A DNA stretch of 64,000 nucleotides, taken from Syntrophorhabdaceae bacterium. Its GTDB lineage: Bacteria; Desulfobacterota; Syntrophorhabdia; Syntrophorhabdales; Syntrophorhabdaceae. The notes under the pieces were generated by a model. It did not search any database and had not been told where the DNA came from. It was given only the letters and a program-made list of their open reading frames with translations. Numbering within the stretch: the stretch's first letter is position 1; each line of letters begins with the position of its first letter. Where the stretch lies: assembly GCA_963666485.2 (NCBI GenBank), contig CAXXUO010000009.1:352001-416000 (forward strand). Reading direction: 5' to 3'. Below, piece after piece: positions 23,142-46,363 of this stretch. The translations under genes were made by a program, and so were the position numbers.

Positions 23142-23189
23142 CACCAAGGCTTTATTGCCTCCCCCAATCCAGAAACAAAGGCAAAGACA

Positions 23190-23451
23190 CTGGATTCCGG
23201 CTTTCGCCGGAATGACGGCGGGGGGCTGTCGACGCTGGATTCCTGGTTTCGGCGGAATGACGGTGGGGGGATGTCGACGCTGGATTCCGGTTTCGGCGGA
23301 ATGACGGCGGGGGGCTGTCGACGCTGGATTCCGGTTTCGGCGGAATGACGGCGGGGGGCTGTCGACGCTGGATTCCGGTTTCGGCGGAATGACGGCGGGG
23401 GGCTGTCGACGCTGGATTCCGGTTTCGGCGGAATGACGGCGGGGGGCTGTC
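23190..23451. repeat. six tandem 44-45 bp units with REP-like palindrome
   Basis: Unit ctggattccggtttcggcggaatgacggcggggggctgtcgacg starting at 23190, 23235, 23280, 23324, 23368, 23412. Confidence 0.95.
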
Positions 23452-23483
23452 GCCTTTAGCCTTTCGCCTTTCGCCTTTCGCCT
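23452..23483. repeat. heptamer microsatellite (GCCTTTM)n
   Basis: gcctttagcctttcgcctttcgcctttcgcct. Confidence 0.85.
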
Positions 23484-23610
23484 CACCCTTTTTCCTGTCT
23501 TGCCCGGCGCCTCAAATCATGGTAGATTTTCACAGCTTTTCGAGATCTGCACATCGACCGTGGAATCCCTGATGAAGCAGGCATCGTTCACATCATCGTA
23601 AGGAGCAATC

Positions 23611-26503: not shown

Positions 26504-26506
26504 AAG

Positions 26507-26643
26507 CGGCTAACGGCTAACGGCTAACGGCTAACGGAAAAAGAAAACCTTTCATCTGTAAAGGTCTCGATCATCCAGAACTCTTTAGCCTTTTATCTTT
26601 TGCCGTTAGCCGTTAGCCGTTAGCCGTTAGCCGTACGCCGTTA
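26507..26643. repeat. inverted heptamer microsatellite pair (CGGCTAA)4 ... (GCCGTTA)~6
   Basis: 26507-26534 and 26602-26643 are reverse complements, ~65 bp apart. Confidence 0.9.
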
Positions 26644-26648
26644 TTTAT

Positions 26649-27905
26649 ATGCTTAAACCCTTCGAAATCTGCTCCATCAGACCCCCGACGGAAAATTTCA
26701 GCCTGACGTTCAGGCTTACGCGGAATTGCGGGTGGAACCGGTGCCTTTTTTGTCCCGTTTACAAGCAGGGGGTTAAGTTTTCACGGCGCAGCCTCGATGA
26801 AATAAAGGAGGACGTCGATAGGGCGAAGGCAATCGACGATGTCCTGATGCAGGTCCTGGCACATTCACCGGGACAGGATATTTTTCAGGTCGCCGGCGAT
26901 CTCATTCGGCAGATACGGAGGGATGAAGCTACCGCCGGGCGGGCGTCAGCGGCGGGTGAAGGAGAAGAAGACAGCGGCGGATCCGACAACTGGTTCGCAT
27001 CGTGGTTCAAGGATAAGCCCACGATCGAGGACAGTGTCCAGCACGTCGCATCCTGGCGGTATGGTGCCGGGAACACGTGTTTTCTCGGCGACTCGAATTC
27101 CCTTGTGCTCAAACCGGAATTTTTTCATGAAGCAGTTTCCTATATAAGATCTGTTTTCCCCGAGCTCAAACGCTTCACCATCTACGGCAGGACAAAGTCA
27201 GCGTCTGAAATGACCCTCGAAGATCTCCGCATCTTCAGGGATGCCGGCCTTGACCGCATCCATTTCGGCATGGAAAGCGGGTGCGATGAGGTGCTGGCTT
27301 TCATGAAAAAGGGGGTGACCGGGGAAGAACATATATCGGGGTGCCGAAAGACCATTGAAGCGGGCATATCCTGCGGCGTCTATGTCATGCCCGGGCTCGG
27401 CGGAGCGAAATGGTCAGAGAAACATGCGCACGATACCGCACGTGTCATCAGTGCAAGTTCGCCCGATTACGTGCGCTTAAGGACCCTTGAGATATTTCCC
27501 GGTACGCGCCTCGCGGATGCCGCTCTCGACGGGACGTTCATCGAGGCGACCGAGGAACAGGTCGTGCGCGAGATACGAACGCTCGTCGATAGCATTGACA
27601 CGGACACGCAGATCGTCAGCGACAGTGCGTCGAATCTGCTCGACGTATCAGGGCGCCTGCCGGGCGACCGTCCCGGAATGCTTGCCGTTATCGACGAATA
27701 CCTCAACTTGTCTCCCCGGGAAAAGCTGGAATTCAGCCTGGCATCACGCCTGCAATCATTTGTCGGCCAGTACGGCGGGGTAACGCAGGAGATCATGCGG
27801 GCGATCATGCCCTTTATCGATGGCAACAGCATAAACCTCGGCCGCGCGCCGGACGATGAGGTTGTGAGCGCCATCCGCCTCATCCGTTCCCGGCTTATGC
27901 CTTAA
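26649..27905 (+). CDS. radical SAM protein
   Basis: IRPPTE, CGWNRCLFC cysteine motif, GMESG, MPGLGG. Confidence 0.88.
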   Translation: MLKPFEICSIRPPTENFSLTFRLTRNCGWNRCLFCPVYKQGVKFSRRSLDEIKEDVDRAKAIDDVLMQVLAHSPGQDIFQVAGDLIRQIRRDEATAGRASAAGEGEEDSGGSDNWFASWFKDKPTIEDSVQHVASWRYGAGNTCFLGDSNSLVLKPEFFHEAVSYIRSVFPELKRFTIYGRTKSASEMTLEDLRIFRDAGLDRIHFGMESGCDEVLAFMKKGVTGEEHISGCRKTIEAGISCGVYVMPGLGGAKWSEKHAHDTARVISASSPDYVRLRTLEIFPGTRLADAALDGTFIEATEEQVVREIRTLVDSIDTDTQIVSDSASNLLDVSGRLPGDRPGMLAVIDEYLNLSPREKLEFSLASRLQSFVGQYGGVTQEIMRAIMPFIDGNSINLGRAPDDEVVSAIRLIRSRLMP

Positions 27906-27966
27906 AAGCCCCTACCGAACTAAATAAGTTGCTCCTTTGCTACGGTGCGGATATAATTGTCGCAGC

Positions 27967-29367
27967 ATGGCGTTCGAAGATTTCTTGCGCGATATCAGGG
28001 AACTGCTCAACACTGACCAGATCATTATCGATCACGATAACCTGTCACATTTTTCCTATGACGCGACGGAGAGGCATTCCCTGCCCGAGGCCGCCGTCCT
28101 CCCCGAGAACACGGAACAGGTTTCGCACGTTCTGCGATGCTGTTACCGGCACAACGTCGCGGTCACTCCCCAGGGCGGGAGAACGGGCCTGTCCGGAGGC
28201 GCGGTACCGGTAACCGGCGGCATTGTCCTCGCCTTCCCGCGGATGAACAGGATCCTCGAGATCGACGAGGCAAACATGTTTGCCGTTGTTGAGCCGGGGG
28301 TCATATCAAACAATCTTCAAAAGGCCCTCAACGAGCGGGGGCTTTTCTTCCCGCCGGACCCGTCGAGCACTGTCGACAGCACGCTCGGAGGTAATGTCGC
28401 GGAAAATGCCGGATATACGCGGGCTGTCAAATACGGCGTTACCCGGGATTATGTCCGCGGGATCGAAGCCGTGCTCCCATCCGGCGATGTTATCACTCTC
28501 GGCGGGAAAACCCTCAAGAATGTGGCAGGATACGACCTCATCTCACTGATCACCGGTTCGGAGGGTACGCTGGCGGTGATAACGAAGATCACCCTGCGCA
28601 TCCTGACGCGGCCGCGCGTTCGCCGGACGGTTGTCGCGTATCTCGATGACCTGGTCTCGGCTGCCGACCTCATCGTCGCCATCTTCAGGTCCGGTATGAT
28701 GCCCTGTGCGGTAGAACTCATGGACACGATCGCTATAAACAATGTCGCCGATTACCTCGGCGTCCCTCTTAACCGGACGGCCGCGGCCATGGTGCTTATT
28801 GAAATGGACGGACATGACGAAAGTGCTGTCAATAACGAGGCCCGGGAAATGCACACCCTGTGCGCGAACTCTCCCGGTACTTTCGATGTGCACTTCGCGC
28901 CGGATGACGCCGCGGCAGACAAGTTCTGGCTGGCGCGCCGGGAGGTGCTGCCATCGCTCAAGGCGCTGGGGAAGGACCACCTCGAGGCGGATGTTGCGGT
29001 CCCCCGTTACCAGCTTCCTTACCTTGTCCGGTTCATACGGTCGCTCGGACACAGCGATGCCCTGCGCATAGCGACCTACGGCCACGCGGGAGACGGCAAC
29101 CTCCATGTCACGATACTCTACCGGCGCCGGAATTTCGCCGAGCTTGACGAGGCATACCGGCTGCTTGAAGAGATCTATCGCGAAACGATAGACATGGGAG
29201 GAACTCTCACCGGCGAGCACGGGGTGGGCCTTACGGTCATGGATTATCTTCCCCTGCAGCTCGGCGGCGATGCATTGCTTCTCATGAAGAGGATCAAGGA
29301 CGCCTTCGATCCGAAGGGCCTTTTGAATCCGGGCAAGATATTCAAAGAACCGGACGCCCAAAAATAA
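27967..29367 (+). CDS. FAD-linked oxidase, GlcD/D-lactate dehydrogenase family
   Basis: GGRTGLSGGA, FPPDPSS, GSEGTL, GHAGDGNLH, GEHGVG, LNPGKI. Confidence 0.92.
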   Translation: MAFEDFLRDIRELLNTDQIIIDHDNLSHFSYDATERHSLPEAAVLPENTEQVSHVLRCCYRHNVAVTPQGGRTGLSGGAVPVTGGIVLAFPRMNRILEIDEANMFAVVEPGVISNNLQKALNERGLFFPPDPSSTVDSTLGGNVAENAGYTRAVKYGVTRDYVRGIEAVLPSGDVITLGGKTLKNVAGYDLISLITGSEGTLAVITKITLRILTRPRVRRTVVAYLDDLVSAADLIVAIFRSGMMPCAVELMDTIAINNVADYLGVPLNRTAAAMVLIEMDGHDESAVNNEAREMHTLCANSPGTFDVHFAPDDAAADKFWLARREVLPSLKALGKDHLEADVAVPRYQLPYLVRFIRSLGHSDALRIATYGHAGDGNLHVTILYRRRNFAELDEAYRLLEEIYRETIDMGGTLTGEHGVGLTVMDYLPLQLGGDALLLMKRIKDAFDPKGLLNPGKIFKEPDAQK

Positions 29368-29430
29368 ATATGCGGGTATACCGTAGAAATACTTGTAATC
29401 ACATGATATAATCGGTAGAGTCTTTAAGGC

Positions 29431-31206
29431 ATGGTCCAAAAGAACCCGGACAAGAACGACATATATCAGGCTTTTTTTCAATCGTCAGAGATAGCCGCGA
29501 TAATCGCCGACTCCGACGGGGCGATACTACACGCAAACCGGCAATTCCTCAAGCTTTCTAAATACAGAAAAACAGAGATACATAAGAAGGCATGGCCGGA
29601 ACTGATCGTCAGCGCCGACCTGACCAAAACGAAGGAGCACCGCGAATTTATCGACAACAACGGCCCCGACACGGCGCAAAGCACGAATTTCAAGCTCGCC
29701 TTGAGGGACGGTTCCGTCCGGGATGTGCTGATAATCCGCAATCGGCTGAAGGACAAAGGGTATCTGGCGGTATCATTTATCGATATTACCGAGTACGTCA
29801 AAGCCGGAAAACGGATAAGCATCAGTGAGGAAAAATACCGGTCGCTTATCGAATCTACCGATGATTCCGTCTATATGGTCGACCGGGAATGCAGGTATCT
29901 TTTTGTCAACAGGCAGGTACTCGGCCGTCTCGGCATCGATGAAGCCGATATGATAGGCAGGCGATACGCCGACTTTCACAATGCCGATGACAGCTTTGAT
30001 TTTACCGGGTACGTGGAAAAGGTTTTTGAATGGAACACGTCGCTGAGTTACGAACATAAGAGCGACAACGGGAAACGATGTACGTTGAGGACGCTGAGCC
30101 CAATACTGGACCCAAAGACCGGTGAGATAAAATGCGTTGCCGTCATATCGAAAGATATCACCGAGCTTAAGAAGACGGAGGAGAAACTAAAATATCTCAG
30201 TCTGCACGATCCCCTGACCAATCTTTACAACCGTGCGTACTTCGAAGAGGAAATGCACCGGCTCGACAATAGCCGCTTTGAATTGGTCGGCCTGATCATG
30301 TGCGACATAGACGGGTTGAAGCTTATCAACGATACGCTGGGGCACGAGAAAGGTGACGAACTTCTCATGAGGGCCTCCCATATCATCAGGAAGTCTTTCC
30401 GGGAAAACGACGTCGTTGCGCGCGTCGGGGGCGATGAATTCGCAGTCCTCCTTCCCAACACCCCCCGTTCCAAGGTTGAAGAGATATGCGCCAGGATAAA
30501 AAGCAGCATTGCGGATTATAACAAGAAGAACCGCAGCCTGCCGCTCGGCATCTCCATCGGCTTTTCCATCCGCAGCGGGCCCGGTCAGAGCATGGCCGAA
30601 TTATACCGGGAAGCCGACAACGGCATGTACAAGGAAAAGCTGTTCGGAAGCCAGCAGTTCCGGGGTGTGATAGTGACCAACCTCCTCAGCACGATCGAGG
30701 ACATCGGCATCACAACCCGACACTCGGCGCGCAGGTTGAAAAAACTGGTCACAGCCCTGGGAGAAGCGGTCGGACTTCCCGAAAAAAGGATGAAGGACCT
30801 GGTCCTCCTTGCCCAGTTTCACGATATTGGAAATATCGGAGTTCACCACCGGACGCTTCTCAAGGAGGGGGTCCTGACCCCGGACGAGCTCGTTGAAATT
30901 CGCAAGCATTGCGACATTGGCCATCGTATCGCCCAGTCGTCAGCCAGTCTGACCCATATCGCGGAACATATCCTCAAACATCATGAATGGTGGAACGGGG
31001 GCGGATACCCGTTAGGTATTTCGGGCGATGACATCCCCCTCGAAAGCCGCATCATAGCCATCGCCGATGCGTACGAAGCGATGACCGGCGGGCGGCCGCA
31101 CCGTAAAGCGATCTCCAGGAAGAAGGCCCTCCAGGAATTGAAAGATTGCGCGGGCAAACAGTTCGATCCTGAACTGGTCACGGCATTCGTCCAGGCCATA
31201 TCCTAG
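29431..31206 (+). CDS. PAS-PAS-GGDEF-HD-GYP cyclic di-GMP enzyme
   Basis: Intact GGDEF; HDIG and HHEWWNGGGYP. Confidence 0.92.
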   Translation: MVQKNPDKNDIYQAFFQSSEIAAIIADSDGAILHANRQFLKLSKYRKTEIHKKAWPELIVSADLTKTKEHREFIDNNGPDTAQSTNFKLALRDGSVRDVLIIRNRLKDKGYLAVSFIDITEYVKAGKRISISEEKYRSLIESTDDSVYMVDRECRYLFVNRQVLGRLGIDEADMIGRRYADFHNADDSFDFTGYVEKVFEWNTSLSYEHKSDNGKRCTLRTLSPILDPKTGEIKCVAVISKDITELKKTEEKLKYLSLHDPLTNLYNRAYFEEEMHRLDNSRFELVGLIMCDIDGLKLINDTLGHEKGDELLMRASHIIRKSFRENDVVARVGGDEFAVLLPNTPRSKVEEICARIKSSIADYNKKNRSLPLGISIGFSIRSGPGQSMAELYREADNGMYKEKLFGSQQFRGVIVTNLLSTIEDIGITTRHSARRLKKLVTALGEAVGLPEKRMKDLVLLAQFHDIGNIGVHHRTLLKEGVLTPDELVEIRKHCDIGHRIAQSSASLTHIAEHILKHHEWWNGGGYPLGISGDDIPLESRIIAIADAYEAMTGGRPHRKAISRKKALQELKDCAGKQFDPELVTAFVQAIS

Positions 31207-31214
31207 AATATTAT

Positions 31215-32837
31215 TTAAAGAAAAAGATCTGTGAATGCGAAGCGTTCGCCGTCAAAAAGACCCCTGTCGCTTAGTTTGAGCTTCGGTATGACAACGAGCG
31301 CCATGAAAGAGAGCGTCATGAAGGGTGCACTGAGGGAACATCCCAGTTCGTGGGCGAGCATATTCATGCGGCTGTATTTCTGCGCGACGCTGTAGCCGTC
31401 ATCATCGGACATTATCCCGGCTACCTGCAGGGGCAGCACCATCTTCATATCGTCAGAAACAAGTGAGATCCCCCCTCTTTTTTCGATAACGCAATTGACC
31501 GCCTGACAGAGCATGTCATCGGACGTGCCCACGACAATAATGTTATGCGAATCGTGGGCTATCGACGAGGCCATAGCGCCTTTCTTGAGGTTGAATCCCC
31601 GTATGAATGCAACGGCGGGCGGCCCGTCGGAATAACGGTTGACGACGGATATCTTGAGAAGATCGTTGCTGGTATCGCACATCAGCTTGCCGTCCTTCAC
31701 AGGGACATCAGCGGTCGATGAACCGGTGATCAGCTGCCCGTCGATGGCCTCGATGACGCGAACCGACCCCGATGTCCCTCGGACGGCGAAGTCATCCGGT
31801 TGTTTTACCGATGCGTTGAAAACGTTGATGGGCTTCGGTGCCGTATGCGCGATCCTGCTCATGCCGTCCTCGGCAACAATCTGTCCCCGCACTATCGTCT
31901 TCAAGACGTTAAACGACTCAAGGTTATCGACGACGATCATGTCCGCCGGGTCCGATACGCGCAGCAGGCCGACATTGAGCCCGTAATGCCCGACGGGATT
32001 GACGCATGCGCATCGCAGTACTTTCATAAGGTCAATCCCCCTGCGCACCGCGCGCTCAACGAGCAGGTTGATATGTCCGCGCACAAGCATGTCGGGATGC
32101 GTATCGTCGGTACACAGCATGCATTGCCCGGGATGGTCCGTGATCAGAGTACAGAGCGTATCGAAATTCCTGACTGCCGAGCCTTCCCGGATAAGTATTT
32201 TCATGCCGAGAGACAACTTTTCCCGGGCCTCTTCGATCTCGAACGACTCGTGGTCGGTCGATATGCCGGCCTCTACATAAGCCCGGAGAGCTTCGCCGCG
32301 AAGTCCCGGTGCGTGGCCATCGACAGGTTTACCCGCTGCCCGTGCGGCTTCCAGCTTCGCGATCACCTCCGGGTCGCCATTGATAACCCCGGGGTAATTC
32401 ATCATCTCACCCAGGTACCCGATGTCATCCCTTAGCAGGAGGCGTTCTATTTCGGCGGCCCCAATATGGGAACCGGATGTCTCGAAGGGGCTCGCCGGTA
32501 CACATGACGGGGCGCCGAACGAAAAAATAAAGGGCAGTCCCGACCCGCTCTCTATCATATAATCGATCCCCGGCAATCCCATGACATTCGCGATCTCGTG
32601 CGGGTCGGATACGCTGGCGACAGTTCCGTGGACGACGGCGATCCGGGCAAAACCGGCCGGGGTCAGCATGGAACTCTCGATGTGAATGTGTGAATCAACA
32701 AATCCGGGCAGGATATACCTGTCGGACCAGTACCTTTCCCGCTCGATCCCCGTGATGATGCCGCCCTCCATCCGGACAGTACCGGGAAAGATGGTCTCGT
32801 TGTGGATATCGACGATATTACCGGATACGCTGGTCAT
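31215..32837 (-). CDS. ade: adenine deaminase
   Basis: PGFVDSHIHIESS, DPHEIANV, DGHAPG, TDHE, AHDSHN. Confidence 0.95.
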   Translation of the reverse strand: MTSVSGNIVDIHNETIFPGTVRMEGGIITGIERERYWSDRYILPGFVDSHIHIESSMLTPAGFARIAVVHGTVASVSDPHEIANVMGLPGIDYMIESGSGLPFIFSFGAPSCVPASPFETSGSHIGAAEIERLLLRDDIGYLGEMMNYPGVINGDPEVIAKLEAARAAGKPVDGHAPGLRGEALRAYVEAGISTDHESFEIEEAREKLSLGMKILIREGSAVRNFDTLCTLITDHPGQCMLCTDDTHPDMLVRGHINLLVERAVRRGIDLMKVLRCACVNPVGHYGLNVGLLRVSDPADMIVVDNLESFNVLKTIVRGQIVAEDGMSRIAHTAPKPINVFNASVKQPDDFAVRGTSGSVRVIEAIDGQLITGSSTADVPVKDGKLMCDTSNDLLKISVVNRYSDGPPAVAFIRGFNLKKGAMASSIAHDSHNIIVVGTSDDMLCQAVNCVIEKRGGISLVSDDMKMVLPLQVAGIMSDDDGYSVAQKYSRMNMLAHELGCSLSAPFMTLSFMALVVIPKLKLSDRGLFDGERFAFTDLFL

Positions 32838-32881
32838 TCATTCCTTCCCTGGTGCCGCCCCCTTCCGGGGCCGCGTTTCGA

Positions 32882-32947
32882 TAAAAAAATAACCGGCAGC
32901 CGCCCAAGGGATCAACATATATCGATCGTTTGGCGGCTGGCGGTTAT
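32882..32947 (-). terminator. intrinsic terminator after cysS-porC
   Basis: ataaccggcagccgcc...ggcggctggcggttat hairpin with T-run on the minus strand. Confidence 0.65.
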
Positions 32948-32972
32948 CTCGCAATGCCTCGCGTTACGTCCG

Positions 32973-33524
32973 CTACTCCGCGGTGATTGTCACTGCCTCG
33001 TTATACGCCCGGGTATACGCATTGATATTCTTCTGCCCGTTGACGCCGAAACGGCTGCGGACAGGCTCTTCGAGGGCGCTGAGGTCGACCACTTTCGTCG
33101 CCAGGACCAGGGCCCCGAGCATCGTCGTGTTCGTGATAGGAACGCCAAGCTCTTCCTTGGCTATCTTCGACGCGTCCACCGCCACGATATTGTGGCCGGG
33201 AAATGCCTTTTTCAGTTCCTCTACCGATTTATTGCTATTGATGATGATATAACCACCCTTCTTCAGTCCTGCGGTCGGGTTCGCGGATTCTATCAGCGTC
33301 GGGTCGAGTATCAGGACGCTGTCGGGTTTGTACACTTTAGACCTTAAGCGGATCGGTTTGTCCGACACGCGTAAAAAAGCCTGTACCGGTGCGCCGCGGC
33401 GCTCCGGCCCGAAGCTCGGGAAAGCCTGCGCTGTCATGCCCTGCTTGATCGCTGCCTGGGCGATGATCTCCGCAGATGTTACGGCCCCCTGTCCGCCCCT
33501 TCCATGAAATCTGACTTCTAGCAT
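32973..33524 (-). CDS. 2-oxoacid:ferredoxin oxidoreductase gamma subunit
   Basis: EVRFHGRGGQGAVT, FPSFGPERRGAPV, NTTMLGA. Confidence 0.92.
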   Translation of the reverse strand: MLEVRFHGRGGQGAVTSAEIIAQAAIKQGMTAQAFPSFGPERRGAPVQAFLRVSDKPIRLRSKVYKPDSVLILDPTLIESANPTAGLKKGGYIIINSNKSVEELKKAFPGHNIVAVDASKIAKEELGVPITNTTMLGALVLATKVVDLSALEEPVRSRFGVNGQKNINAYTRAYNEAVTITAE

Positions 33525-33537
33525 ATCTCTTCTCCTT

Positions 33538-34983
33538 TTAAGAAACTGAAGTTTTTATACGCCACTGTGTGCCTTGAGGAGTGTCAAGAAGCATGATCCC
33601 TTTTTCGGCCAGCATATTTCTTATCTCGTCCGCTTTCTGGAAATTCTTGGCTTTGCGCGCCTCGATCCGGTCACGAATGGCATTCTCGACGAACGAGGCG
33701 TCGAGGCCCATGCGTGCAAGATGACGCATCTTTGCCTGATTTTCAAAAGATTCGAAACTGTCTTCCAGGAGTCCCAAAGTCCCGGCGAGGGACTCGAACA
33801 TCTGGTTTGCGGATGCTATGAGCGGCAGCGCGCCCGCATCCTTATCATCGAGCATCCGGTTTATCTCTTTTGAAAGCTCGAATATATGGGAGAGTGCCAG
33901 GGCCGTATTGAAATCGTCATCCATGGCCTCAATGAATTTCTTGTTTATCTCTTCTGCCTGTTCGAAACTGCGGGCCTCGAAGCTTTTTCCCTTCTGGGCC
34001 TCGAGCGCCCTGTGCCGGGTGTAATAAAGCCGCTGGAGCGCAGTATTCACGTCATCGATCGATTGGCCGTTATAATCGACGGGGCTGCGATAGTGGTTCG
34101 AGAGATAGAAGAGCCGAAGCGCCTCGGGATGATAGTCTTTCAGGAATTCCTTGATCGACAGCGTGTTGCCTATCGACTTCGACATCTTTTCCCGGTCAAT
34201 GTTGACAAAACCGTTATGCACCCAGTAATTCACAAATTTCTGACCGGTTGCTGCTTCGGTCTGCGCCTTTTCATTCTCATGGTGCGGGAATACAAGGTCT
34301 TTTCCACCGCCGTGGATATCGAAAGGATTGCCGAGGAACAACGTGCTCATGGCGGAACATTCGATATGCCATCCCGGCCGCCCCTTCCCGAACGGGGCAT
34401 CCCATGACGGCTCACCTTCTTTCGATGCCTTCCAGAGGGCGAAATCGAGTGGGTTCCTCTTCTTTTCGTCGACGTCGACCCGGGCGCCGGACATCATTTC
34501 GTCTAGCGGCCGTTTCGAGAGTTGGCCATAGTTCCTGAAACTGTCCACGGAAAAATAGACATCACCGTCGATATTGTAGGCATGGCCCTTTTTTATCAGC
34601 GAATCGACCAGGGTTATCATATCGCCGATATGATCGGTCGCGCGGGGTTCATGGGTAGGCCGCATAATGCCCAAGGCGTCCATGTCCTCGTAAAATGAAG
34701 CGATATATTTCTGGCCGACTTCCTGCCAGGGTATGTTTTCCTCGTGGGACCTGCGGATGATCTTGTCATCGATATCTGTGAAATTCCTGACATAGGTCAC
34801 GTCATAGCCCTTCGACCGCAAATACCGGTACATGGTATCGAAAACTATGGCACTCCGGGCATGGCCTATGTGGCAGTGGTCATACACGGTCACACCACAG
34901 ACGTAGAGTTTTACCGCGCCCTCGGTTATGGGGGTAAAATCTTCTTTTTTTCCGGATATTGTATTGTAAACCTTCAGGGCCAT
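33538..34983 (-). CDS. cysS: cysteine--tRNA ligase
   Basis: CGVTVYD, HIGH, GRPGWHIECS, KMSKS; start at MALKVYNT. Confidence 0.97.
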   Translation of the reverse strand: MALKVYNTISGKKEDFTPITEGAVKLYVCGVTVYDHCHIGHARSAIVFDTMYRYLRSKGYDVTYVRNFTDIDDKIIRRSHEENIPWQEVGQKYIASFYEDMDALGIMRPTHEPRATDHIGDMITLVDSLIKKGHAYNIDGDVYFSVDSFRNYGQLSKRPLDEMMSGARVDVDEKKRNPLDFALWKASKEGEPSWDAPFGKGRPGWHIECSAMSTLFLGNPFDIHGGGKDLVFPHHENEKAQTEAATGQKFVNYWVHNGFVNIDREKMSKSIGNTLSIKEFLKDYHPEALRLFYLSNHYRSPVDYNGQSIDDVNTALQRLYYTRHRALEAQKGKSFEARSFEQAEEINKKFIEAMDDDFNTALALSHIFELSKEINRMLDDKDAGALPLIASANQMFESLAGTLGLLEDSFESFENQAKMRHLARMGLDASFVENAIRDRIEARKAKNFQKADEIRNMLAEKGIMLLDTPQGTQWRIKTSVS

Positions 34984-34997
34984 AGCGTTGACCGTAA

Positions 34998-35027
34998 TAT
35001 TTACCATAGCTATCGCGGACTTGTCAA
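34998..35027 (-). promoter_or_regulatory. putative sigma-70 promoter of cysS
   Basis: TTGACA-N18-TAAATA with extended TG on the minus strand. Confidence 0.4.
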
Positions 35028-35037
35028 AGCAATTGAA

Positions 35038-36393
35038 TCAGGGGCAGCGGCCTTCTTTCAGGTTTTGCGCCCCCGTGCGGAAGTTTTGCACAAGCCCCGC
35101 AAGGAGGTTCCGATAATAGGGAATGGACCCTTCCGCGGCATTGGTTATCATCTCGTTCGCCTTCATCGCATTCACATGGTCACGGATGGTAGGCACGCCA
35201 TTGCCGGACATCGGTCCGGCTTCTCTCGCCCTTAATGCACCTACCTCCCGGGGCAGTTTACTTTCGTATAACATCTGGAAGGCATCTATTGCCGCGAGGT
35301 ATTTATCGACGGCATCGGGAGGAATATCCTTCAGGATACCTTCCTTATTTGCCAGCTGGAGATAGCTGCAGGCCATATCGACAAACCCCGCGAGACCGAT
35401 CATGAAGAAATCGAGTTTATCGAGGGCGGATGCCGGTTCTTTCGCCTTCGCAACGCTCATCATAACGGCTGCAACCTGCCGGACCCGGGACAGAAAGATC
35501 CATTCCCGGGCGCACGCGGCGGCATGCTGCAGGATGTGCCCGACAAGATGAACGATATTACTCTCCGATAATGTTCCGATATCGCATTGCTTCGAAAACA
35601 TCTTCACCGACCGTTCAATGTCGCTTCGTTTCAGAGTATCCAGGATATCCTTGTGGCCCTCCAGAAGATCTTCCCTCAGGGAAGGCGGTATCCTGGACAG
35701 TGCATCGATAATGAAATCCGGAAAAATTTCGTCCAGAAGGTGAATCTGCTCCGATGGCCCGGTCGCTGACTCCCCGGGCACATTGGCAGACCGGGACCTT
35801 TCCCGCATAAATTTTTGAAAGATCGGCTCGATCTTGCCCGACCGGTCCATCTCCTTGACCAGGGGATCATATCGTACCGGGTCTTGCCTGGCGGCCGAGA
35901 CGATCTCCGACGCCTTTCTCAAGGTATTGTAGTGCAGGCCAACGGCCTCGGCCGCATGAGACCTGGCGGACCTGTGACAGCGGTCCTTTTCCGGGCCGCC
36001 CGGTACCGTGCCGACGGGGTTTGATAGCGAGGATACCTTTTCCGGTGCTATCTGGCCTGCAATGCCCATCCGCTTACGTTCTTCCTTGAGCGCCTCGAAA
36101 ATGGCTACCTTCTCCGATATCGTGAAATCCAGCCTGCATGTGTTCTCATCGTGCTCGCCGCGGATGATGCTGTCAATATCAATAAGGTTTACATGAACCC
36201 CCTCGGTCAGTTCCGTAATGCCCAGCTCTTCGAGCGCTTTCAGCCGGCGAAACCCCGCGACAAGTTCGTTCGTCCCTTTTTTGATGACGATCGGTTGAAG
36301 AAGCCCGACATCCGATATCGATCTTTTCAGAGACCCAATATCCCCCACGACCGTTCTATGCCTCTTCCCGATGATGATATCTTTTATTTCCAT
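35038..36393 (-). CDS. ParB/Srx N-terminal domain protein with HTH and long unknown C-terminus
   Basis: RBS AAGGAGG; GLLQPIVI..LVAGFRRLKA, DENTCR, AAEAVGLHYNTL. Confidence 0.85.
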   Translation of the reverse strand: MEIKDIIIGKRHRTVVGDIGSLKRSISDVGLLQPIVIKKGTNELVAGFRRLKALEELGITELTEGVHVNLIDIDSIIRGEHDENTCRLDFTISEKVAIFEALKEERKRMGIAGQIAPEKVSSLSNPVGTVPGGPEKDRCHRSARSHAAEAVGLHYNTLRKASEIVSAARQDPVRYDPLVKEMDRSGKIEPIFQKFMRERSRSANVPGESATGPSEQIHLLDEIFPDFIIDALSRIPPSLREDLLEGHKDILDTLKRSDIERSVKMFSKQCDIGTLSESNIVHLVGHILQHAAACAREWIFLSRVRQVAAVMMSVAKAKEPASALDKLDFFMIGLAGFVDMACSYLQLANKEGILKDIPPDAVDKYLAAIDAFQMLYESKLPREVGALRAREAGPMSGNGVPTIRDHVNAMKANEMITNAAEGSIPYYRNLLAGLVQNFRTGAQNLKEGRCP

Positions 36394-36425
36394 ATGCCTC
36401 CTTTAATCTCTCAAGGTCCGCAGTG

Positions 36426-36442
36426 CTGTACAATTTGTACAG
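36426..36442. promoter_or_regulatory. perfect palindrome upstream of parB-like gene (candidate operator/parS-like site)
   Basis: CTGTACAA-T-TTGTACAG in a 62-bp intergenic gap. Confidence 0.4.
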
Positions 36443-36455
36443 GGGCCTTCCTCTC

Positions 36456-37100
36456 TCACGACGACCCGAAAATTGACAGTATATTACGCTCGCTTCTCCT
36501 CAGGGCGAGCCCGAAAAGATGATTGTGCCCTGCCCCGTCGAACCAGGGCCCTGTTACCGATTCCGACGGCCCGGAATCTAAACATTCTTCATGGACCCCC
36601 GATCCTTCAGGTTCCAGGTGATCGATGTGAACCTCCGGGACTTCATCTATCTCGGCCACATTCTCGAGACCGCCCGACATGTCCGCCAGCGAGAATCGCC
36701 AGCGCTGATCTTTTCGGGCAACCCGCTTCACCCTCTGTTCTATCCAGAGGCAAATATAAGAAGCGATCTCACCCGCCGATTTCGTGAGGTCGAGCCTGCC
36801 CTGCCTCGCGATCTGTATAAGAACAACGGTCGCGTCCTGGACATAATCATTGATCTGATCGTCAATTGTTCTTCCCTTATCGATCCTTCCCAGGACAGCC
36901 CTGACAATACTGCTGACCACCCCGGCCGAGTATAATTCCTCGACCATCTTCTGCTGGCCGTTCACCCGGGCATCCGCGATCAGGCATGTAAAGTCCCCGG
37001 TATTCATGGACCGGAAGAAGGCCCGTACATACGCGGTCATGGCCTGTGCGCGTTCGCTGCCTGTATTCATCCACGCTGTCGCTTCCATGCCTTGTGTCAT
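36456..37100 (-). CDS. hypothetical protein with sigma-70 region-2-like segment
   Basis: DYVQDATVVLIQ..LDLTKSAGEIASYICLWIEQRVKR; ATGA-coupled to the upstream gene. Confidence 0.55.
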   Translation of the reverse strand: MTQGMEATAWMNTGSERAQAMTAYVRAFFRSMNTGDFTCLIADARVNGQQKMVEELYSAGVVSSIVRAVLGRIDKGRTIDDQINDYVQDATVVLIQIARQGRLDLTKSAGEIASYICLWIEQRVKRVARKDQRWRFSLADMSGGLENVAEIDEVPEVHIDHLEPEGSGVHEECLDSGPSESVTGPWFDGAGHNHLFGLALRRSERNILSIFGSS

Positions 37101-37801
37101 ATCGTTTTTCCTCTTCCGGGGGCTTCCCCGGCATCTTCCCGGCGGGCGAACCGGACCTTTGCCTTGCCATATTCCAGTATCGCCAGGCGCTCCCCGGATC
37201 CTTCGGGAAACATTCTCGCGGCAATGGAGCAGGGTATGTTCACCTCTTCCCGAGCCATCCTGAATGCGTGCCCGAGATTATCAGCGGTGGGGTATTTTTC
37301 TATAAGTGTTATCATGCCGGGATCAAGGTGGGCGCCGACAACACCGATAAATCCTTCGATCCCCTTTTTCCCCGGAAGACGCGTGTCCTTGCGTGTTCCG
37401 TAAAGCCGTCGCCGTGCTCTCATGACATTGACTGTTATAAGAAGCCCACCGGACCCGAGAAAGACCGCTGCGATGAACCGCGTGCACGCCGTGGTATGCC
37501 CCGAAGAAGATTCGACCGCCTTCTCAAGCACATCTTTCCTGATGCCGGCATAACTGCCCTTCCGTGCGAGTTCGGCGTCGAGCGTATCCCTGACACTCCG
37601 GATCCTGTACAACTCGATCTCGTAATCAGGACAGGAAAATAAGCGGGCGTAAAGGCTTGCTTGAAAATGGAGCGACGGCAGCGTGATCCTGTGCAGGACG
37701 ATCGTGCTTCGCAATGCAAAGAAAGTCAGCAGTGCCAGTATGGCCAGGCCCGCAACGACGTAAGCAACATCATCCGAGCTTTTCTTCTCGATCCTCTCCA
37801 A
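37097..37801 (-). CDS. membrane protein, compact DotM/IcmP/TrbA-like
   Basis: Two TM regions with FQASLYARLF, and C-terminal AREEVNIPCS..YGK, resembling DotM segments as I recall them; TTG start after GGGGGG. Confidence 0.55.
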   Translation of the reverse strand: MERIEKKSSDDVAYVVAGLAILALLTFFALRSTIVLHRITLPSLHFQASLYARLFSCPDYEIELYRIRSVRDTLDAELARKGSYAGIRKDVLEKAVESSSGHTTACTRFIAAVFLGSGGLLITVNVMRARRRLYGTRKDTRLPGKKGIEGFIGVVGAHLDPGMITLIEKYPTADNLGHAFRMAREEVNIPCSIAARMFPEGSGERLAILEYGKAKVRFARREDAGEAPGRGKTI

Positions 37802-38069
37802 TACAATCCCCCCGACGTATTGAACGATGCTGGTATTTATCTGGATTTCAAATAATAAGTTACTGCTTTGGAATTTACTGCGGGAAACAACTGGCGATGT
37901 CTATAAAAATATATTTCGAGAAATACTGTCAAGATAAATATAGCGTACGGCACAATCAAAAATTAATAATTGCGGGGAACTGCCGTTTTGATGCGACCGG
38001 GGGCTATATCTCCTTATAAGGGACCGATCTTTTAAAGTGTCCCTGCCAGTTTTACCCGGAGGAGAAAAT

Positions 38070-38693
38070 ATGCGGGTCCTTATAGTTGCGGGCCTCGCCT
38101 GCTTTCTGACGGCCTGTTATATTCCTGCGAGCGGAGCCGTTGAAGCCGATCTTTCAAAGGTCTGTAATGAACTTAATGTGATGAAGAAAGAGGAACCCGA
38201 AAAGTACAGGGATTTCCGCTATGCCCTGCGGCATATACGCAGCGTCAACAGGAAGCAGTCAAACATTACATCTCTCCTTGTGGCAAAAGCGATAGCGGAC
38301 CATGTGCATGAAAAGAGGTTCCGGTATACATCCGAGGAACACAGGCTCAATTTCTTTTCTGTCATTATGGGTATCATTCGGGTCGAAAGCGGCTTTAACC
38401 CGGATGCCGTCAGCGGCAAGGACGCCCGCGGCCTGATGCAGGTCCACTGGCCGACATGGAAGAGATATTTTTCGTCACAGGAAGATATCCACGATATTCA
38501 CAGGAATCTTTCGGTGGGCACGGCAATTCTTACAGGGTACATGGCCGCATCGCGGAACGACCTCCGCGCCGCCTTGCACAAATACCTGGGCGCAAAGGAC
38601 GACGGATACGCGAACAAGGTGATCGCAAGCGCGCTATCTTTCAAGAAGAGCGTCCTGTTGCAGCCCATAAAGGATATGCCGGGTACGCAATAG
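38070..38693 (+). CDS. lytic transglycosylase (SLT domain)
   Basis: IRVESGFNPDAVS..ARGLMQV..NLSVGT..ALHKY; signal peptide; RBS GGAGGAG. Confidence 0.9.
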   Translation: MRVLIVAGLACFLTACYIPASGAVEADLSKVCNELNVMKKEEPEKYRDFRYALRHIRSVNRKQSNITSLLVAKAIADHVHEKRFRYTSEEHRLNFFSVIMGIIRVESGFNPDAVSGKDARGLMQVHWPTWKRYFSSQEDIHDIHRNLSVGTAILTGYMAASRNDLRAALHKYLGAKDDGYANKVIASALSFKKSVLLQPIKDMPGTQ

Positions 38694-38710
38694 CGTCCCC
38701 GGTAAACATT

Positions 38711-39364
38711 TTATTGTACTATCGGAACAAGATCCATCGGGTGTTCGAGCAGGAATTCGGCTCCATTGGAGACGAGTTCCTCTTTCGTCCTGAAACCCCA
38801 CAGGGCGCCGGCGGGGTGCATCCCCGCATTGCGGGCGGTTTGCATATCTACGTCGGAATCCCCGACGTATATCAGGTCCCCGGGTTCGATCCCGAGGCGC
38901 GCGCTTATTGCAAGGACCCCTTTCGGGTCCGGTTTTTCGGGCAGTTCAGGGCCGGACCCGAGAACAACGGCAAAATCGCAACCGGAAAAAAGCTCCGCCA
39001 TGATCTTCTTTGTAAGGTCATCGACCTTGTTTGAAAAAACGGCCCTGGCAATCTTAAGCCGCATGAGCTCCGTAAGCAGGTCAATGATGCCGGCGTACGG
39101 TCGGGTCATGTTGAGGTAATTTGCCCCGTATTCCGCGAGCAGCGCATCGCGGCAAAGCCCGATCTGCGCGGCATCCCGGGCATCCTCCGGCAAAGCCCTG
39201 ATAACGAGGTTCGTCATCCCGCGCCCGACAAACGCCTTGTACGTGTCGGTGCTATGCGTGGGAAAACCGTAGGTCGCCAGGACTTTGTTCATGGAATCCG
39301 CTATATCGTCAAGGGAATTAACAAGCGTCCCGTCAAGATCGAAAATGACACCCTTGTAGCGCAT
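38711..39364 (-). CDS. HAD hydrolase (phosphoglycolate phosphatase-like)
   Basis: FDLDGTL, SNK, KPDP, YVGDSDVD. Confidence 0.9.
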   Translation of the reverse strand: MRYKGVIFDLDGTLVNSLDDIADSMNKVLATYGFPTHSTDTYKAFVGRGMTNLVIRALPEDARDAAQIGLCRDALLAEYGANYLNMTRPYAGIIDLLTELMRLKIARAVFSNKVDDLTKKIMAELFSGCDFAVVLGSGPELPEKPDPKGVLAISARLGIEPGDLIYVGDSDVDMQTARNAGMHPAGALWGFRTKEELVSNGAEFLLEHPMDLVPIVQ

Positions 39365-42332: not shown

Positions 42333-42903
42333 GTGTATAACATGAAATCTATCAAGACAAGAATTTTATGTACGGCAATAATGGCAATAACCGCCCTGTT
42401 TCTTACCGGGCTGGATGGGGCGCTTGCGGCAACCGGCGAGGAGATCGAGCGTGATGCCCAAAGAGTGTTGACCCGCCTGTATTCAAAAGTACCTGCCGCG
42501 AAAGCGCTCGGCGAAAAAGCGAAAGCCGTATTGGTGTTCCCTTCCATAAAAAAAGCCGGTCTTATTGTCGGCGGGCAGTATGGGGAGGGGGGTACTTTTC
42601 AAAAAAGGGAAACGCGCCGGCTTTTATAACACATCCGGGGCTTCCTACGGCCTGCAGGCCGGTGCGCAGAAATTCGGCTATGCACTCTTTTTCATGACCG
42701 ACGCCGCTGTGGGCTACCTCGATAAGAGCGAGGGCTGGGAACTCGGTACGGCGCCAAACATCGTTATCCTGGATAAGGGGGCGGCATCAGGGATATCGAC
42801 AACCACCGCCCAGTCGGACATGTACGCGTTCTTCTTCGACCAGAAGGGCCTCATGGCGGGCCTTGGGCTGCAGGGAACCAAGATCACGCGCATCAATAAG
42901 TAA
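42333..42903 (+). pseudogene. Ysc84/SYLF lipid-binding domain protein, frameshifted
   Basis: AKAVLVFP..KAGLIVGGQYGEG continues as VLFKKG..GLQAGAQ..GLMAG in another frame; extra G in the G6 run 42587-42592; may be a sequencing error. Confidence 0.8.
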
Positions 42904-45900
42904 CGAACACGGGAGCCAATCGCTGAATGACCCTCATCTCCCGTCTCCAACCAGGACGAAACCGCCCCAGAAAAAAAGGGTGGGCTGTGGATATTTTCAG
43001 CCCTCCTATGTCGATAGATCTCCCTATCATATCGAGTTTTGCATCCCGTAATGCTTGAGCCCTGCCCTTCGACGAGATCATCTGGTGAGCTTTGATCATG
43101 AGGTCCCGCGTCGTCTCGCTTTCAACACTCCAGTGGGTTACCAGAACAGACGGCGTGCCTGCAAACATAAAAGATCTCGTCAGGCCCACAAAACCCTCGC
43201 CTTTATCTGTTCCCCCCTCCGCCGCAGATGTGTTGCACGCTGAAAGCGTGACAAGTTCGGCGTGAATATCGAGACCCAGGACCTCGTCCATTTCGAGCAG
43301 TCCATCATTCTTTCCATCCCCGACAAGGCTTAAGACGAGGGATGGCTGGTTCACCTTGAATTCACCGGCAAGCAGTCCATGTGTCGCAATCGTCACGTAC
43401 CGATACGGCTTGAGGTCTATCGTCTTCAGTACCGTCTCCCGGGCATCCTCCCTCAGGAAGGGTTTCTTCTTTGCTTTCAGGGTCATCGCTATCGCCTTGA
43501 CCTCATCCGCGGTCGCCGACAGGCGGGGCAATACCTTGCAAGGATCGGCATCGGTCAGTGAGCCGGACCCCCTCAAGGCCATCAGCGCCAGGTCCGTCCC
43601 CCTGTTGAGAAAGACATCTTTTCCTCCCTTCTTCAATTCCCGGGGGCAGAAAACGGGGTCTGCAAAGGCGACGAGAGGCTCCGACCATTTACCGTAACCA
43701 TCCTTCAAGAACATCCGGACGGAAGAAAGCACGGACACGGAAGGAAGGTAGGATACTGAATAACTTTTCAACAGGAAGGGGATGCGGCCGTAGTCTGAGG
43801 AACGTATGGCTTTACTCAGGGTGAAACCTTCATATTTCCTGATAAGTTCCTCTGTCTCCGGGCCGTCCTTGACGAGCGTTTCGAAGGGAAGTGTATAGAG
43901 GACATCGTGCGCTGAAATGTAGATGATCTGCGCACCCTGTATATGTTTTTCAACGGATCTGACGAGAACACCGTATAGTTCGTTGGCCGCTTTCACGTTA
44001 TAAGCTGCAAGGTCGTCGGGATTCCCCGTTCTCCCCACTTTTTCCAGTGAATATTTGTAGGACCGTATCTTGCTTCGCAGCTCATTGCTCTTTATATCGG
44101 TAACCGCAATATGGACATCCCCGGCCGTAATAACCCAGGCTATAAGATTTTCCTCGGTAATGAAGTAGGAGATGATAATTTCACCCGGTTTCAGGACATT
44201 CTCCTGCAGCTCCTTTATTGTCTTCGGCCTTGGTTTTTTAAGATCGGCATATTCAGGGAAATTTGATTCAATCTCGCGTTCGAGGACCGCGAGCCGGGTT
44301 TCCGTGGCGATCAAGTCCTTTTCGAAGGTCTTGATCAGGTTCTGGTCCCGCCTGGCCTCCGGCTTATTGAATGCCTCTGTAAGATGGTTCCTGTATTGCG
44401 TTAGATTGTCCACCAGGTCCCGTTCCCTGTTGACGTATTGCCCGATCCGTGGATTGCTTCTTCCGATCACGCGCCGCGCACTCGCCTTTGCCAGCATCTC
44501 CTGGAATGTTCGTGCCTTCGCCTGTTCGGAGACATAAAACGCCTGGATGCCGTCCTCAAGGTGCGACCCTTTTCTGTAACTCCTGATCAAAAGAGATATT
44601 AGTGCTTCATAGGGTTTTGACCGCCGTGCGAAAAACGTCAGTTTATGCTCTTCCGAGGTGAGTTTGCTTCGCATGGATTCCATGGCGTCGATAGAGGCCA
44701 TGTAAGCTTTCTTGGCCTTTTCAATCTCACCCTGCCGTTCATAAATGGTCCCTTTATTCAAATGGATCGCGGCAATATACTCGAGCGCATGGATCCGAGC
44801 GTACACCCTGATAGCCTGATCATAGGAGGCCAGGGCGCCCTCGTAGTCATTGCGCGGCTCGTAGAAAGACAGCGCCATATATTGGTATGTCCTTCCGAGG
44901 GACATAAGGTCGCCGATGGATTCCCATACCTTCACCGTTTCCTGGAATGTCTGCAGACATTCCTTATCCTGGCCAAGGGCTGCCTGCGCACGAAACTTAT
45001 GGTGCAGCGCCAGACCTGTCCACTCTTTCTCTCCCATGGATGAAGAGGCCAGTTCAAGCGCCCTGTCTGCCCACTGCAAGGACAGCTGATAATGAGGCAG
45101 CCTCTCTTCGGCCGGGATGACCGCCCCGAGTTCCTGGTTAAGCTGACTGAGCGCCCTCATGATGTATCCCTGCCGCCATCGGTCATTGACCTGTATGGCG
45201 CATTCAAGGGCCTGGCGCTCGTATTCGATCGCTTCCCTGTACAACTTTGCCTTCGATGCGCTGCCGTTACCCGTTGATGACCAGTCGGCCAGTTTTTCCG
45301 TGCATAGACCGAGGTGGTTAAGCGCCCTGGCCCTGGCTTGCGCCCTCATGCCGGCATCGGCAATAAGGCCGGCGGTCTCCAGCGCTTTCTTGTGATATTC
45401 GATCGCCTTGTCGTAATCACCCAGCTGCCTGTAGAAGAACCCCAGGTAATCATTGAACCTGGCTATATAGACCGGGTCCCGGCCTTTTTCCGCAAGATGA
45501 ACGGCCCGCGTATAAGATTCATGGGCACCTCCGAAATCTGCGGAAGCCACATAAATGTCCCCCAGCTGGCAAAGCGCCCTTCCCATTTCACGCCAGTCCT
45601 CCTCGGGCCTGAAGATCGCCAGCGACTTCTTGTAGAACTCTATTGCCTTCGAGTAGTCCTTTCTCCGTTCGTAAGCATCACCCAGGTCGATAAGCGCCTG
45701 GCCCTGCCCTGCCCTGTCACCCGCATCCCTTGAAAGAAGCAGCGCCTTATTATGGGTCCTTATGGCCTCATCGTAGTTGGCCATTTTTCTTTCCGCCTGG
45801 CCAAGATAGTGCAGGGTTTCCGCTTCCCCTGCGGTATCGGACAACTGGCGATAAAGGCCAATGGCTTTTTTCGCGGGAGCCGGGACACCCCCATAAAGGC

Positions 45901-46363
45901 CCTCGTTAAACGCAGCCGCGGCAACAGATGAAAGACGGTCTGCTTCCGCCTTCGCCGCGCGTTGAGGCGGGGACCACGATTGATACAGTTTTACCCTGCG
46001 GATGAGAAGATCGTCCTTCGAAAGCTCCTGATTGAGTTTTGCAATGGTCAGGGCAAAAGACAGTGATCCTTCTTTTTTGGCGGCTTCCGGCTTTAGATCT
46101 CTAAAATAGTTACGGACCAGTTCATCGGCCAGCGGGCACAAAAGATCGATGTGCGATGCAGACAATTGCCTCATTCTCCTGACGTCCCCGGCCTGATATG
46201 CCCGGGTGACCTGGTCTTTGAACTCGTCAAATGTCAGTTTTGAACCCGGTGCGGGCCCTGACCACGCAACAGGGATATTCATAAGGATGAGGACAACCAG
46301 AATAACGGCAGATTGCGTAAGTGTCTTTATAAGGCTCCGGACCTTATACCCGAACATTTTCAC
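42893..46363 (-). CDS. exported TPR + CHAT (caspase-like) protease
   Basis: Signal peptide, many TPRs, SEQAKAR, ATHG (His), LSACNT (Cys), THWSV; C-terminus probably ends at 42934 once one extra base is removed. Confidence 0.9.
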   Translation of the reverse strand: MKMFGYKVRSLIKTLTQSAVILVVLILMNIPVAWSGPAPGSKLTFDEFKDQVTRAYQAGDVRRMRQLSASHIDLLCPLADELVRNYFRDLKPEAAKKEGSLSFALTIAKLNQELSKDDLLIRRVKLYQSWSPPQRAAKAEADRLSSVAAAAFNEGLYGGVPAPAKKAIGLYRQLSDTAGEAETLHYLGQAERKMANYDEAIRTHNKALLLSRDAGDRAGQGQALIDLGDAYERRKDYSKAIEFYKKSLAIFRPEEDWREMGRALCQLGDIYVASADFGGAHESYTRAVHLAEKGRDPVYIARFNDYLGFFYRQLGDYDKAIEYHKKALETAGLIADAGMRAQARARALNHLGLCTEKLADWSSTGNGSASKAKLYREAIEYERQALECAIQVNDRWRQGYIMRALSQLNQELGAVIPAEERLPHYQLSLQWADRALELASSSMGEKEWTGLALHHKFRAQAALGQDKECLQTFQETVKVWESIGDLMSLGRTYQYMALSFYEPRNDYEGALASYDQAIRVYARIHALEYIAAIHLNKGTIYERQGEIEKAKKAYMASIDAMESMRSKLTSEEHKLTFFARRSKPYEALISLLIRSYRKGSHLEDGIQAFYVSEQAKARTFQEMLAKASARRVIGRSNPRIGQYVNRERDLVDNLTQYRNHLTEAFNKPEARRDQNLIKTFEKDLIATETRLAVLEREIESNFPEYADLKKPRPKTIKELQENVLKPGEIIISYFITEENLIAWVITAGDVHIAVTDIKSNELRSKIRSYKYSLEKVGRTGNPDDLAAYNVKAANELYGVLVRSVEKHIQGAQIIYISAHDVLYTLPFETLVKDGPETEELIRKYEGFTLSKAIRSSDYGRIPFLLKSYSVSYLPSVSVLSSVRMFLKDGYGKWSEPLVAFADPVFCPRELKKGGKDVFLNRGTDLALMALRGSGSLTDADPCKVLPRLSATADEVKAIAMTLKAKKKPFLREDARETVLKTIDLKPYRYVTIATHGLLAGEFKVNQPSLVLSLVGDGKNDGLLEMDEVLGLDIHAELVTLSACNTSAAEGGTDKGEGFVGLTRSFMFAGTPSVLVTHWSVESETTRDLMIKAHQMISSKGRAQALRDAKLDMIGRSIDIGGLKISTAHPFFLGRFRPGWRREMRVIQRLAPVFVTY

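Follow-up and report, generated by a model that had tools for sequence, protein, structure and literature searches.

The stretch analysed here, referred to as the window, comprises 64,000 nucleotides of contig CAXXUO010000009.1 from a Syntrophorhabdaceae bacterium. It carries a divergent type IV secretion cluster headed by a coupling-protein gene and, 17.6 kilobases (kb) away, a four-gene module that includes a 234-residue membrane protein. This protein, which belongs to an unannotated family, probably represents a new family of coupling-protein partner. An earlier sequence-only reading of the same DNA had taken it for a miniaturised homologue of DotM/IcmP, the partner of the coupling ATPase in Dot/Icm systems. 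The features on which the argument draws are the following, with their basis in brackets.

37097 to 37801, minus strand: inner-membrane protein of 234 residues (open reading frame (ORF), hydropathy, AlphaFold2 (AF2) model, 21-sequence alignment A2)
38037 to 38693, plus strand: SLT-family lytic transglycosylase, probable lipoprotein (PF01464 match, motifs, LTAC lipobox)
37802 to 38036: divergent intergenic region of 235 base pairs, common to the SLT gene and the operon of the 234-residue protein (sequence)
36456 to 37100, minus strand: soluble protein of 214 residues without a known family (ORF, language-model lead)
35038 to 36393, minus strand: protein of 451 residues with an N-terminal ParB/Srx-type domain and a tail of about 340 residues of unknown family (PF02195, PHROG 12047)
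19544 to 35007: intervening housekeeping genes (profile matches)
17769 to 19484, minus strand: type IV coupling protein of the DotL/IcmO/TrbC type, 571 residues (NCBIfam TrbC_conju, Pfam TrwB_AAD_bind and TraG-D_C)
4612 to 17447, minus strand: remainder of the divergent type IV secretion cluster (profile matches; many genes without a family)

The 234-residue protein and its family

The ORF of the 234-residue protein opens with a TTG start, 5' of which lies a G-rich ribosome-binding stretch. Hydropathy places hydrophobic segments at residues 9-37 and 106-128, confirming the two membrane segments separated by a loop that the sequence-only reading had described. The 18 residues past the second segment (128-145) contain eight lysine or arginine residues against one aspartate or glutamate. 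Because this positive excess directly follows the second transmembrane helix (TM2), the C-terminus is assigned to the cytoplasm and the loop of approximately 70 residues to the periplasm. The resulting layout is N-in and runs through TM1 (about 9-37), a periplasmic three-helix loop, TM2 (about 106-128) and an Arg-rich stretch to a small helical cytoplasmic domain. In the AF2 model built from 21 sequences, which has a mean confidence score (pLDDT) of 82.8, the cytoplasmic part comprises approximately 100 residues and forms a compact bundle of five short helices. This model supersedes an earlier one (7 sequences, pLDDT 64), for which all Foldseek rows were non-significant and the VIA rows were helical bundles.

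A word-indexed search of 5.8 billion proteins returned 7 relatives, and an exhaustive HMMER search of 1.84 billion cluster representatives returned 19, with identities down to 26%. Most of the latter are full-length, at about 200-250 residues; six are shorter pieces of 60-157 residues, and one match, to a protein of 4282 residues, is probably spurious. No relative was found in viral contigs or in the plasmids searched. The 21-sequence alignment reveals a common architecture and a conserved C-terminal block, with a motif that spans residues 171-213. Within this motif P171, F180, R184, N188, R196, F198 and R205 are invariant, and P190, S202, E204, L209, G212 and K213 are nearly so.

The gene is present as a single open frame in 15 of 17 genus copies. 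The two fragmented copies come from assemblies in which further module genes are also broken, and in the frameshift-rich metagenome-assembled genome (MAG) behind locus L003 even cysS is fragmented. Measured against the orthologue in genome G025, the ratio of nonsynonymous to synonymous substitution rates (dN/dS) is 0.23 for the 234-residue protein, 0.22 for the SLT protein and 0.14 for both the 214-residue and the ParB-like proteins, with 0.08 for the coupling protein and 0.055 for cysS; dS in this comparison is close to saturation, which makes all of these values rough. The ORF is a real gene under purifying selection.

Predicted contact with the coupling protein and DotM-like features

The sequence-only reading had proposed a complex prediction with the coupling protein as a check, and this prediction passes. 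Three runs give interface scores (ipSAE) of 0.71, 0.69 and 0.69 (median 0.69), and none of the three controls exceeds 0.00. Among solved pairs 116 of 157 reach that mark, and among mismatched pairs 2 of 215. The runs share at least 68% of contacts, with a partner pLDDT of at least 73. Two regions make up the predicted interface. In one, the 234-residue protein packs its membrane helices on the N-terminal membrane helices of the coupling protein; in the other, R184, N188, P190, R196, R205, L209, G212 and K213, which are 8 of the 13 conserved C-terminal positions, contact coupling-protein residues 140-144, 170-174, 342-355 and 404-413. Conserved coupling-protein positions at this predicted interface include G143 and D350, both invariant, and N354. 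On the modelled structures, the prediction supports binding of the 234-residue protein to the coupling protein.

The segment that the prediction places at the interface contains Ile-Pro-Cys-Ser. DotM contacts DotL via a loop containing a Val, a Pro and a Ser, and changes at these residues of the DotL interface abolish function in Legionella (PMC7280309). The overall topology also agrees with that published for DotM, in which membrane helices at the N-terminus are followed by a C-terminal domain in the cytoplasm (PMC5802825). The function of TrbA is given there as still unknown (PMC5802825).

A language-model search (Atlas) with the 234-residue protein is consistent with a DotM-like character. 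Its first three ranks are DotM_C clusters, with scores of 0.87, 0.87 and 0.86 and with 193, 184 and 186 shared features, and a cluster of TrbA fragments appears at rank 15. One of the top three clusters is a family of 211-residue proteins, 14% of whose members carry DotM_C.

Gene order at 11 canonical DotM loci provides a further line of comparison. In 9 of the 11, the genes for DotM and the coupling protein are direct neighbours or have a single gene between them; at the P. syringae locus L029, they are separated by a toxin-antitoxin pair and a thioredoxin-fold gene, three genes in all. As the sequence-only reading had remarked, the ORFs of the main cluster in the window contain neither an SLT nor a DotM_C domain, and PF23127 (DotM_C) has no match anywhere in the window's genome at an expectation value (E) of ≤10. 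Because canonical relatives encode DotM beside the coupling protein and this genome lacks a DotM_C match, the partner slot is empty here. Five of the canonical loci, one in a genome of the same phylum and the others on plasmids of Komagataeibacter, Nitratidesulfovibrio, Cupriavidus and Xanthomonas, have an SLT gene immediately before DotM on its upstream side. The pairing of SLT and 234-residue genes copies this SLT-DotM layout, an analogy that favours a DotM-like role.

Canonical DotM with an adjacent coupling-protein gene was observed in two genomes of another genus of the same phylum. At locus L020 (G450:C39:141066-144593), in the genome inspected in detail, DotM follows an SLT gene within a single operon. 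The nearest relatives of the L020 DotM in the protein collection (69-89% identical) are named from Bilophila, Desulfovibrio and Mailhella.

The two loci, their neighbours and their history

The distribution of the genes was followed through 96 genomes from 26 genera of the order, of which 19 are other genomes of the window genus and 76 belong to 25 other genera. The 234-residue family occurs in 17 of the 19 and in none of the 76. The coupling protein is present in 19/19, with none elsewhere in the order at E ≤ 1e-20; the 214-residue protein is present in 17/19, again with none in the other genera. Strong ParB-like and SLT orthologues are likewise each found in 17/19 and confined to the genus, the other genera giving weak generic domain matches. 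The same two genomes (66% and 92% complete) account for every module miss. The co-occurrence of both loci, which the sequence-only reading had put forward as a check, therefore holds at the level of the genus, and the module was missed in these two of its genomes.

Linkage follows the same pattern. The 234-residue and coupling-protein genes lie on one contig in 15 of the 17 genomes with both, at gaps of 12.9-18.1 kb; the remaining two are fragmented assemblies with the two genes on separate contigs. Four further MAG contigs and two metagenome contigs show an identical order from SLT to the adenine deaminase gene (ade). In four sister genera the cysS-POR-ade order is kept, and no module gene lies upstream of cysS. 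Across a phylum sample of 401 genomes, the 234-residue family and this coupling-protein clade occur in the window genus only. Outside the phylum, a distant family member (26% identity) and a coupling protein 49% identical to that of the window are found on different contigs of the same Bacillota MAG, the assignment to one MAG being made by the source's locus-tag prefix; this MAG is one independent data point for co-occurrence.

Because of the common genus-wide distribution and the conserved linkage, the two loci are best described as one genus-wide, long-resident gene set. The proposal of one system split over two long-resident loci is thereby supported, with five families confined to 1 genus of the 26 and linked at 13-18 kb in 15/17 genomes. 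Judged from its listing, the literature retrieved on Syntrophorhabdus and type IV secretion gives no account of this system.

A second, degenerate copy of the module (G030:C10:40974-42676) was observed on another contig of G030, the most divergent species of the genus. It consists of an SLT piece, an N-terminal piece of the 234-residue gene and ParB-like pieces with stop codons, and no second coupling protein was found there. This copy suggests that the module moved or duplicated as a unit.

The 234-residue gene heads a co-directional run that continues with the 214-residue gene, the ParB-like gene and cysS. The start of the 214-residue gene overlaps the 234-residue stop by 4 bases, an arrangement indicative of translational coupling. 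Language-model look-alikes of the 214-residue protein are phage proteins of about 150 residues (0.96), and one look-alike set carries Sigma70_r2 in 54% of its members (0.94); four orthologues gave no Pfam match at E ≤ 10. The 451-residue protein matches PF02195 at E 3.7e-5 and 24.1 bits, just under the 26.3 cut-off (its L001 orthologue reaches 31.7 bits), and PHROG 12047 at E 1.1e-18; it falls below every NCBIfam cut-off. The module is therefore larger than the sequence-only reading described: the 234-residue and SLT genes stand, and the 214-residue and ParB-like genes belong with them.

The SLT gene is transcribed divergently from this operon. Its identification as a lytic transglycosylase is confirmed by a PF01464 match (E 3.6e-14, 52.8 bits, cut-off 21.3) and by the catalytic-type motifs ES (in VESGF, residues 116-120) and GLMQ (in GLMQV, residues 132-136). 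An internal ATG at 38070, which gives a lipoprotein-type signal with an LTAC lipobox, is the likely true start. In the shared intergenic region (37802-38036), a sigma-70 consensus scan of 34900-38800 found no promoter-like site, and a repeat scan found short repeats only, of uncertain meaning, and nothing interpretable. Compared by BLASTP with 17 proteins whose genes flank canonical DotM genes, the four module proteins reached a best E of 0.15; the SLT protein reached a best E of 1.1 against 5 conjugal SLT proteins. A protein of 1156 residues with TPR repeats and a CHAT domain is encoded at 42893-46363 on the minus strand, approximately 4 kb past the module, without any evident link to it.

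The main cluster (4612-19484, minus strand) begins with the coupling protein, which matches NCBIfam TrbC_conju at E 2e-60 and 205 bits, under that model's 800-bit cut-off. It also encodes a DotB/PilT-like ATPase and a VirB4/TraC-like ATPase and includes a weak DotI/IcmL-like match. The 17.6-kb gap with housekeeping genes noted by the sequence-only reading is confirmed: between the loci lie genes for two PBP_like_2 binding proteins, an ABC permease and ATPase, ProS, an M24 peptidase, a radical SAM protein, an FAD oxidase, a GGDEF-HD protein, adenine deaminase, a POR subunit and CysS. The window contains no tRNA gene, and no integrase or relaxase was seen among the ORFs scanned. Since the window's genome (99% complete) has no match to the relaxase families PF03432, PF08751 and PF03389, the secretion system may be non-conjugative.

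Two side observations concern the coupling-protein locus. An ORF of 87 residues with two hydrophobic stretches (17448-17711, plus strand) lies between the coupling-protein and DotI/IcmL-like genes, opposite to the operon strand; it may represent either a small membrane protein of pilin-like type or an ORF that arose by chance. The coupling protein itself has 571 residues here, as against approximately 700-730 in the divergent species G030 and in relatives of 49-60% identity; a C-terminal extension has therefore been lost or gained within the clade.

Competing explanations and known systems

Taken in aggregate, these results make it somewhat probable that the 234-residue protein is a coupling-protein partner working like DotM, and that the module is a detached accessory part of the secretion system. 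The protein would be an inner-membrane accessory subunit that pairs with a DotL/TrbC-type ATPase, as DotM/IcmP/TrbA does. Its small cytoplasmic domain would lay R184, N188-S192, R196, R205, L209 and G212-K213 on the nucleotide-binding domain. In this way it would anchor or stabilise the coupling ATPase at the membrane, while the large body with which DotM binds effectors is missing from it. To let the machine assemble, the SLT enzyme would make an opening in the peptidoglycan. The four-gene module (SLT lipoprotein, 234-residue, 214-residue and ParB-like proteins) would have been acquired with the secretion cluster in the ancestor of the genus, and would since have stayed 13-18 kb from it.

Several results weigh against this explanation, most of them from direct comparison with DotM. 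PF23127 matches 0/7 and 0/21 members of the 234-residue family at E ≤ 10, in a library in which TrbA and a Pseudomonas plasmid homologue score 2.4e-47 and 2.4e-33. At E ≤ 10, DotM is missing from the matches listed by PDB sequence searches with either family profile, and 10 plasmids that carry DotM contain no match to the family profile. With hhalign, the family aligns to TrbA at a probability of 12%, over membrane helices only, and to an alignment of 13 DotM/TrbA homologues from plasmids and genomes (370-509 residues) at 22.8%, over the second membrane helix only; the C-terminal sub-alignments of the two families give E 0.35. The segments that the sequence-only reading had likened to DotM are present at residues 46-55 and 179-192, and hhalign limited to the motif region selects the same register. 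Its score of 8.1, against 8.35 +/- 1.79 for column shuffles, is reached by 95/200 shuffles, which places the resemblance itself at chance level. Foldseek on the PDB with the model of pLDDT 82.8 returned nothing at E ≤ 0.001, and DotM is not among the 50 matches listed; every VIA-align row lies on the loop in the periplasm (31-112), with the C-terminal domain barely probed. The cytoplasmic part, at about 100 residues and five short helices, is also much smaller than that of DotM, which comprises about 260 residues and 13 helices (PMC5802825).

The remaining points on this side concern the supporting evidence. The Atlas scores lie below 0.9 and the query recognition value of 1784 below the 2300 mark, so that the tool rates the result as a lead only. 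The 234-residue gene is separated from the coupling-protein gene by 17.6 kb of housekeeping genes rather than standing beside it, and co-occurrence within one genus represents a single evolutionary event, not repeated evidence. The controls of the complex prediction are unrelated proteins, not stated to be membrane proteins. As a DotL-DotM complex is already solved, part of the pass may come from resemblance to a complex that the predictor had memorised, a contribution that would itself point to DotM-likeness.

Homology of the 234-residue protein to DotM is thus not established by sequence or fold comparison, and common descent is doubtful. At the profile level (PF23127 0/21; hhalign 12-23%; no Foldseek hit at E ≤ 0.001) the miniaturised homologue of the sequence-only reading is contradicted. 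What survives of its partner idea is function: the complex prediction, the look-alikes and the SLT-DotM neighbourhood all point to a DotM-like role. The protein should not be placed in PF23127 and can be treated as a new family, DotM-like in its position and, by prediction, in its contact.

One sub-case of the DotM-like partner is a true but strongly reduced DotM/TrbA homologue, which would have shed the body that binds effectors but retained the membrane hairpin and the segment that contacts DotL. The DotM_C clusters among the Atlas neighbours, including the 211-residue family, and the common topology would be expected on this account, as would the hhalign register, whose segment is the predicted coupling-protein contact; in DotM, a Val/Pro/Ser loop is a validated contact with DotL (PMC7280309). 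Every sequence-profile and fold test is nevertheless negative or inconclusive, and a domain of about 100 residues has to stand for one of about 260; we regard such reduction as possible but doubtful. An alternative in which the protein is not part of the machine is a membrane-tethered regulator that would use its small C-terminal helical domain to bind DNA or a transcription factor. With the sigma-like 214-residue and the ParB-like proteins, it would form a regulatory or partition cassette left by an integrated element and controlling the secretion genes from outside. The operon partners are of nucleic-acid type (a ParB N-terminal domain and a look-alike cluster bearing Sigma70_r2), the C-terminal domain packs five short helices into a compact bundle, and the top Foldseek row, itself non-significant, is a primase helix-bundle domain (3h20, E 0.99). 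The conserved motif also has a helix-turn-helix-like rhythm by eye, a reading of the domain that was set aside for want of support from any tool. However, none of the 21 members has a match to a helix-turn-helix or sigma family at E ≤ 10, the 214-residue orthologues lack Pfam matches, the language-model neighbours are DotM clusters and not regulators, and the complex prediction puts the conserved motif on the coupling ATPase instead of leaving it free. A regulator is accordingly unlikely.

Less probable again is a genus-specific membrane protein with no functional connection to the secretion system, next to an SLT protein that is an ordinary cell-wall enzyme, with the distribution produced by co-inheritance of neighbouring DNA. 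All co-occurrence within the genus does trace to one ancestor, housekeeping genes do separate the loci, and the 234-residue protein evolves faster than the coupling protein, with identities of 46-59% (contig matches) against 57-87% across the genus and a dN/dS of 0.23 against 0.08. Yet it is improbable that five families restricted to one genus and grouped within 35 kb have nothing to do with each other, and an SLT gene beside the partner is the canonical layout. The passing complex prediction, with all three controls at 0.00, and the Bacillota MAG outside the phylum, with its distant family member and related coupling protein, also argue for a connection.

The interest of the DotM-like partner lies in the fact that coupling-protein partners of type IV systems are known from few model systems only. 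If the 234-residue protein binds the ATPase via one short motif, it would define the minimal requirement for a partner and be tractable for structural work. A bolder and decidedly speculative version would make the family a minimal DotM, consisting of a membrane hairpin and a short ATPase-contact segment. With the SLT, sigma-like and ParB-like proteins, it would serve a relaxase-less, chromosomally fixed type IVB-like machine kept throughout the history of an obligate-syntroph genus, possibly for partner-cell contact rather than conjugation. If this were true, the ancestral, conserved job of DotM/TrbA would be to anchor and stabilise the ATPase, with effector capture a later addition. The secretion system of the window, fixed in the chromosome at two loci and without a relaxase of the three families searched, is an example of long-term domestication outside well-studied pathogens.

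Among known systems, the 451-residue protein resembles ParB-family proteins of plasmids and integrated elements (PF02195; PHROG 12047) in its N-terminal ParB/Srx-type domain. It differs in its C-terminal part of 340 residues, which has no known family, and no ParA partner is seen beside its gene. The window SLT protein shares the SLT domain (PF01464) and the ES and GLMQ motifs with VirB1/TrbN-type conjugal lytic transglycosylases. It adjoins a candidate coupling-protein partner, as in canonical loci, and it is confined to genomes carrying the secretion system. In contrast to them, it is a probable lipoprotein, and its gene is divergent rather than the first of the same operon.

The closest comparison is with DotM/IcmP of Dot/Icm and TrbA of IncI-type plasmids. 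The 234-residue protein differs from these in length (234 residues against the 370-509 of the 13 aligned homologues) and in having neither a PF23127 match nor significant profile or fold similarity. Its gene is set 17.6 kb away from that of the coupling protein and, rather than following the SLT gene downstream, diverges from it, and its periplasmic loop is longer (approximately 70 residues) and is modelled as a three-helix bundle. In common with DotM and TrbA, it has N-terminal membrane helices and a cytoplasmic, all-helical C-terminus, belongs to a system with a DotL/TrbC-type coupling protein and has an SLT gene as neighbour. It is further predicted to bind both the membrane and the nucleotide-binding parts of that coupling protein.

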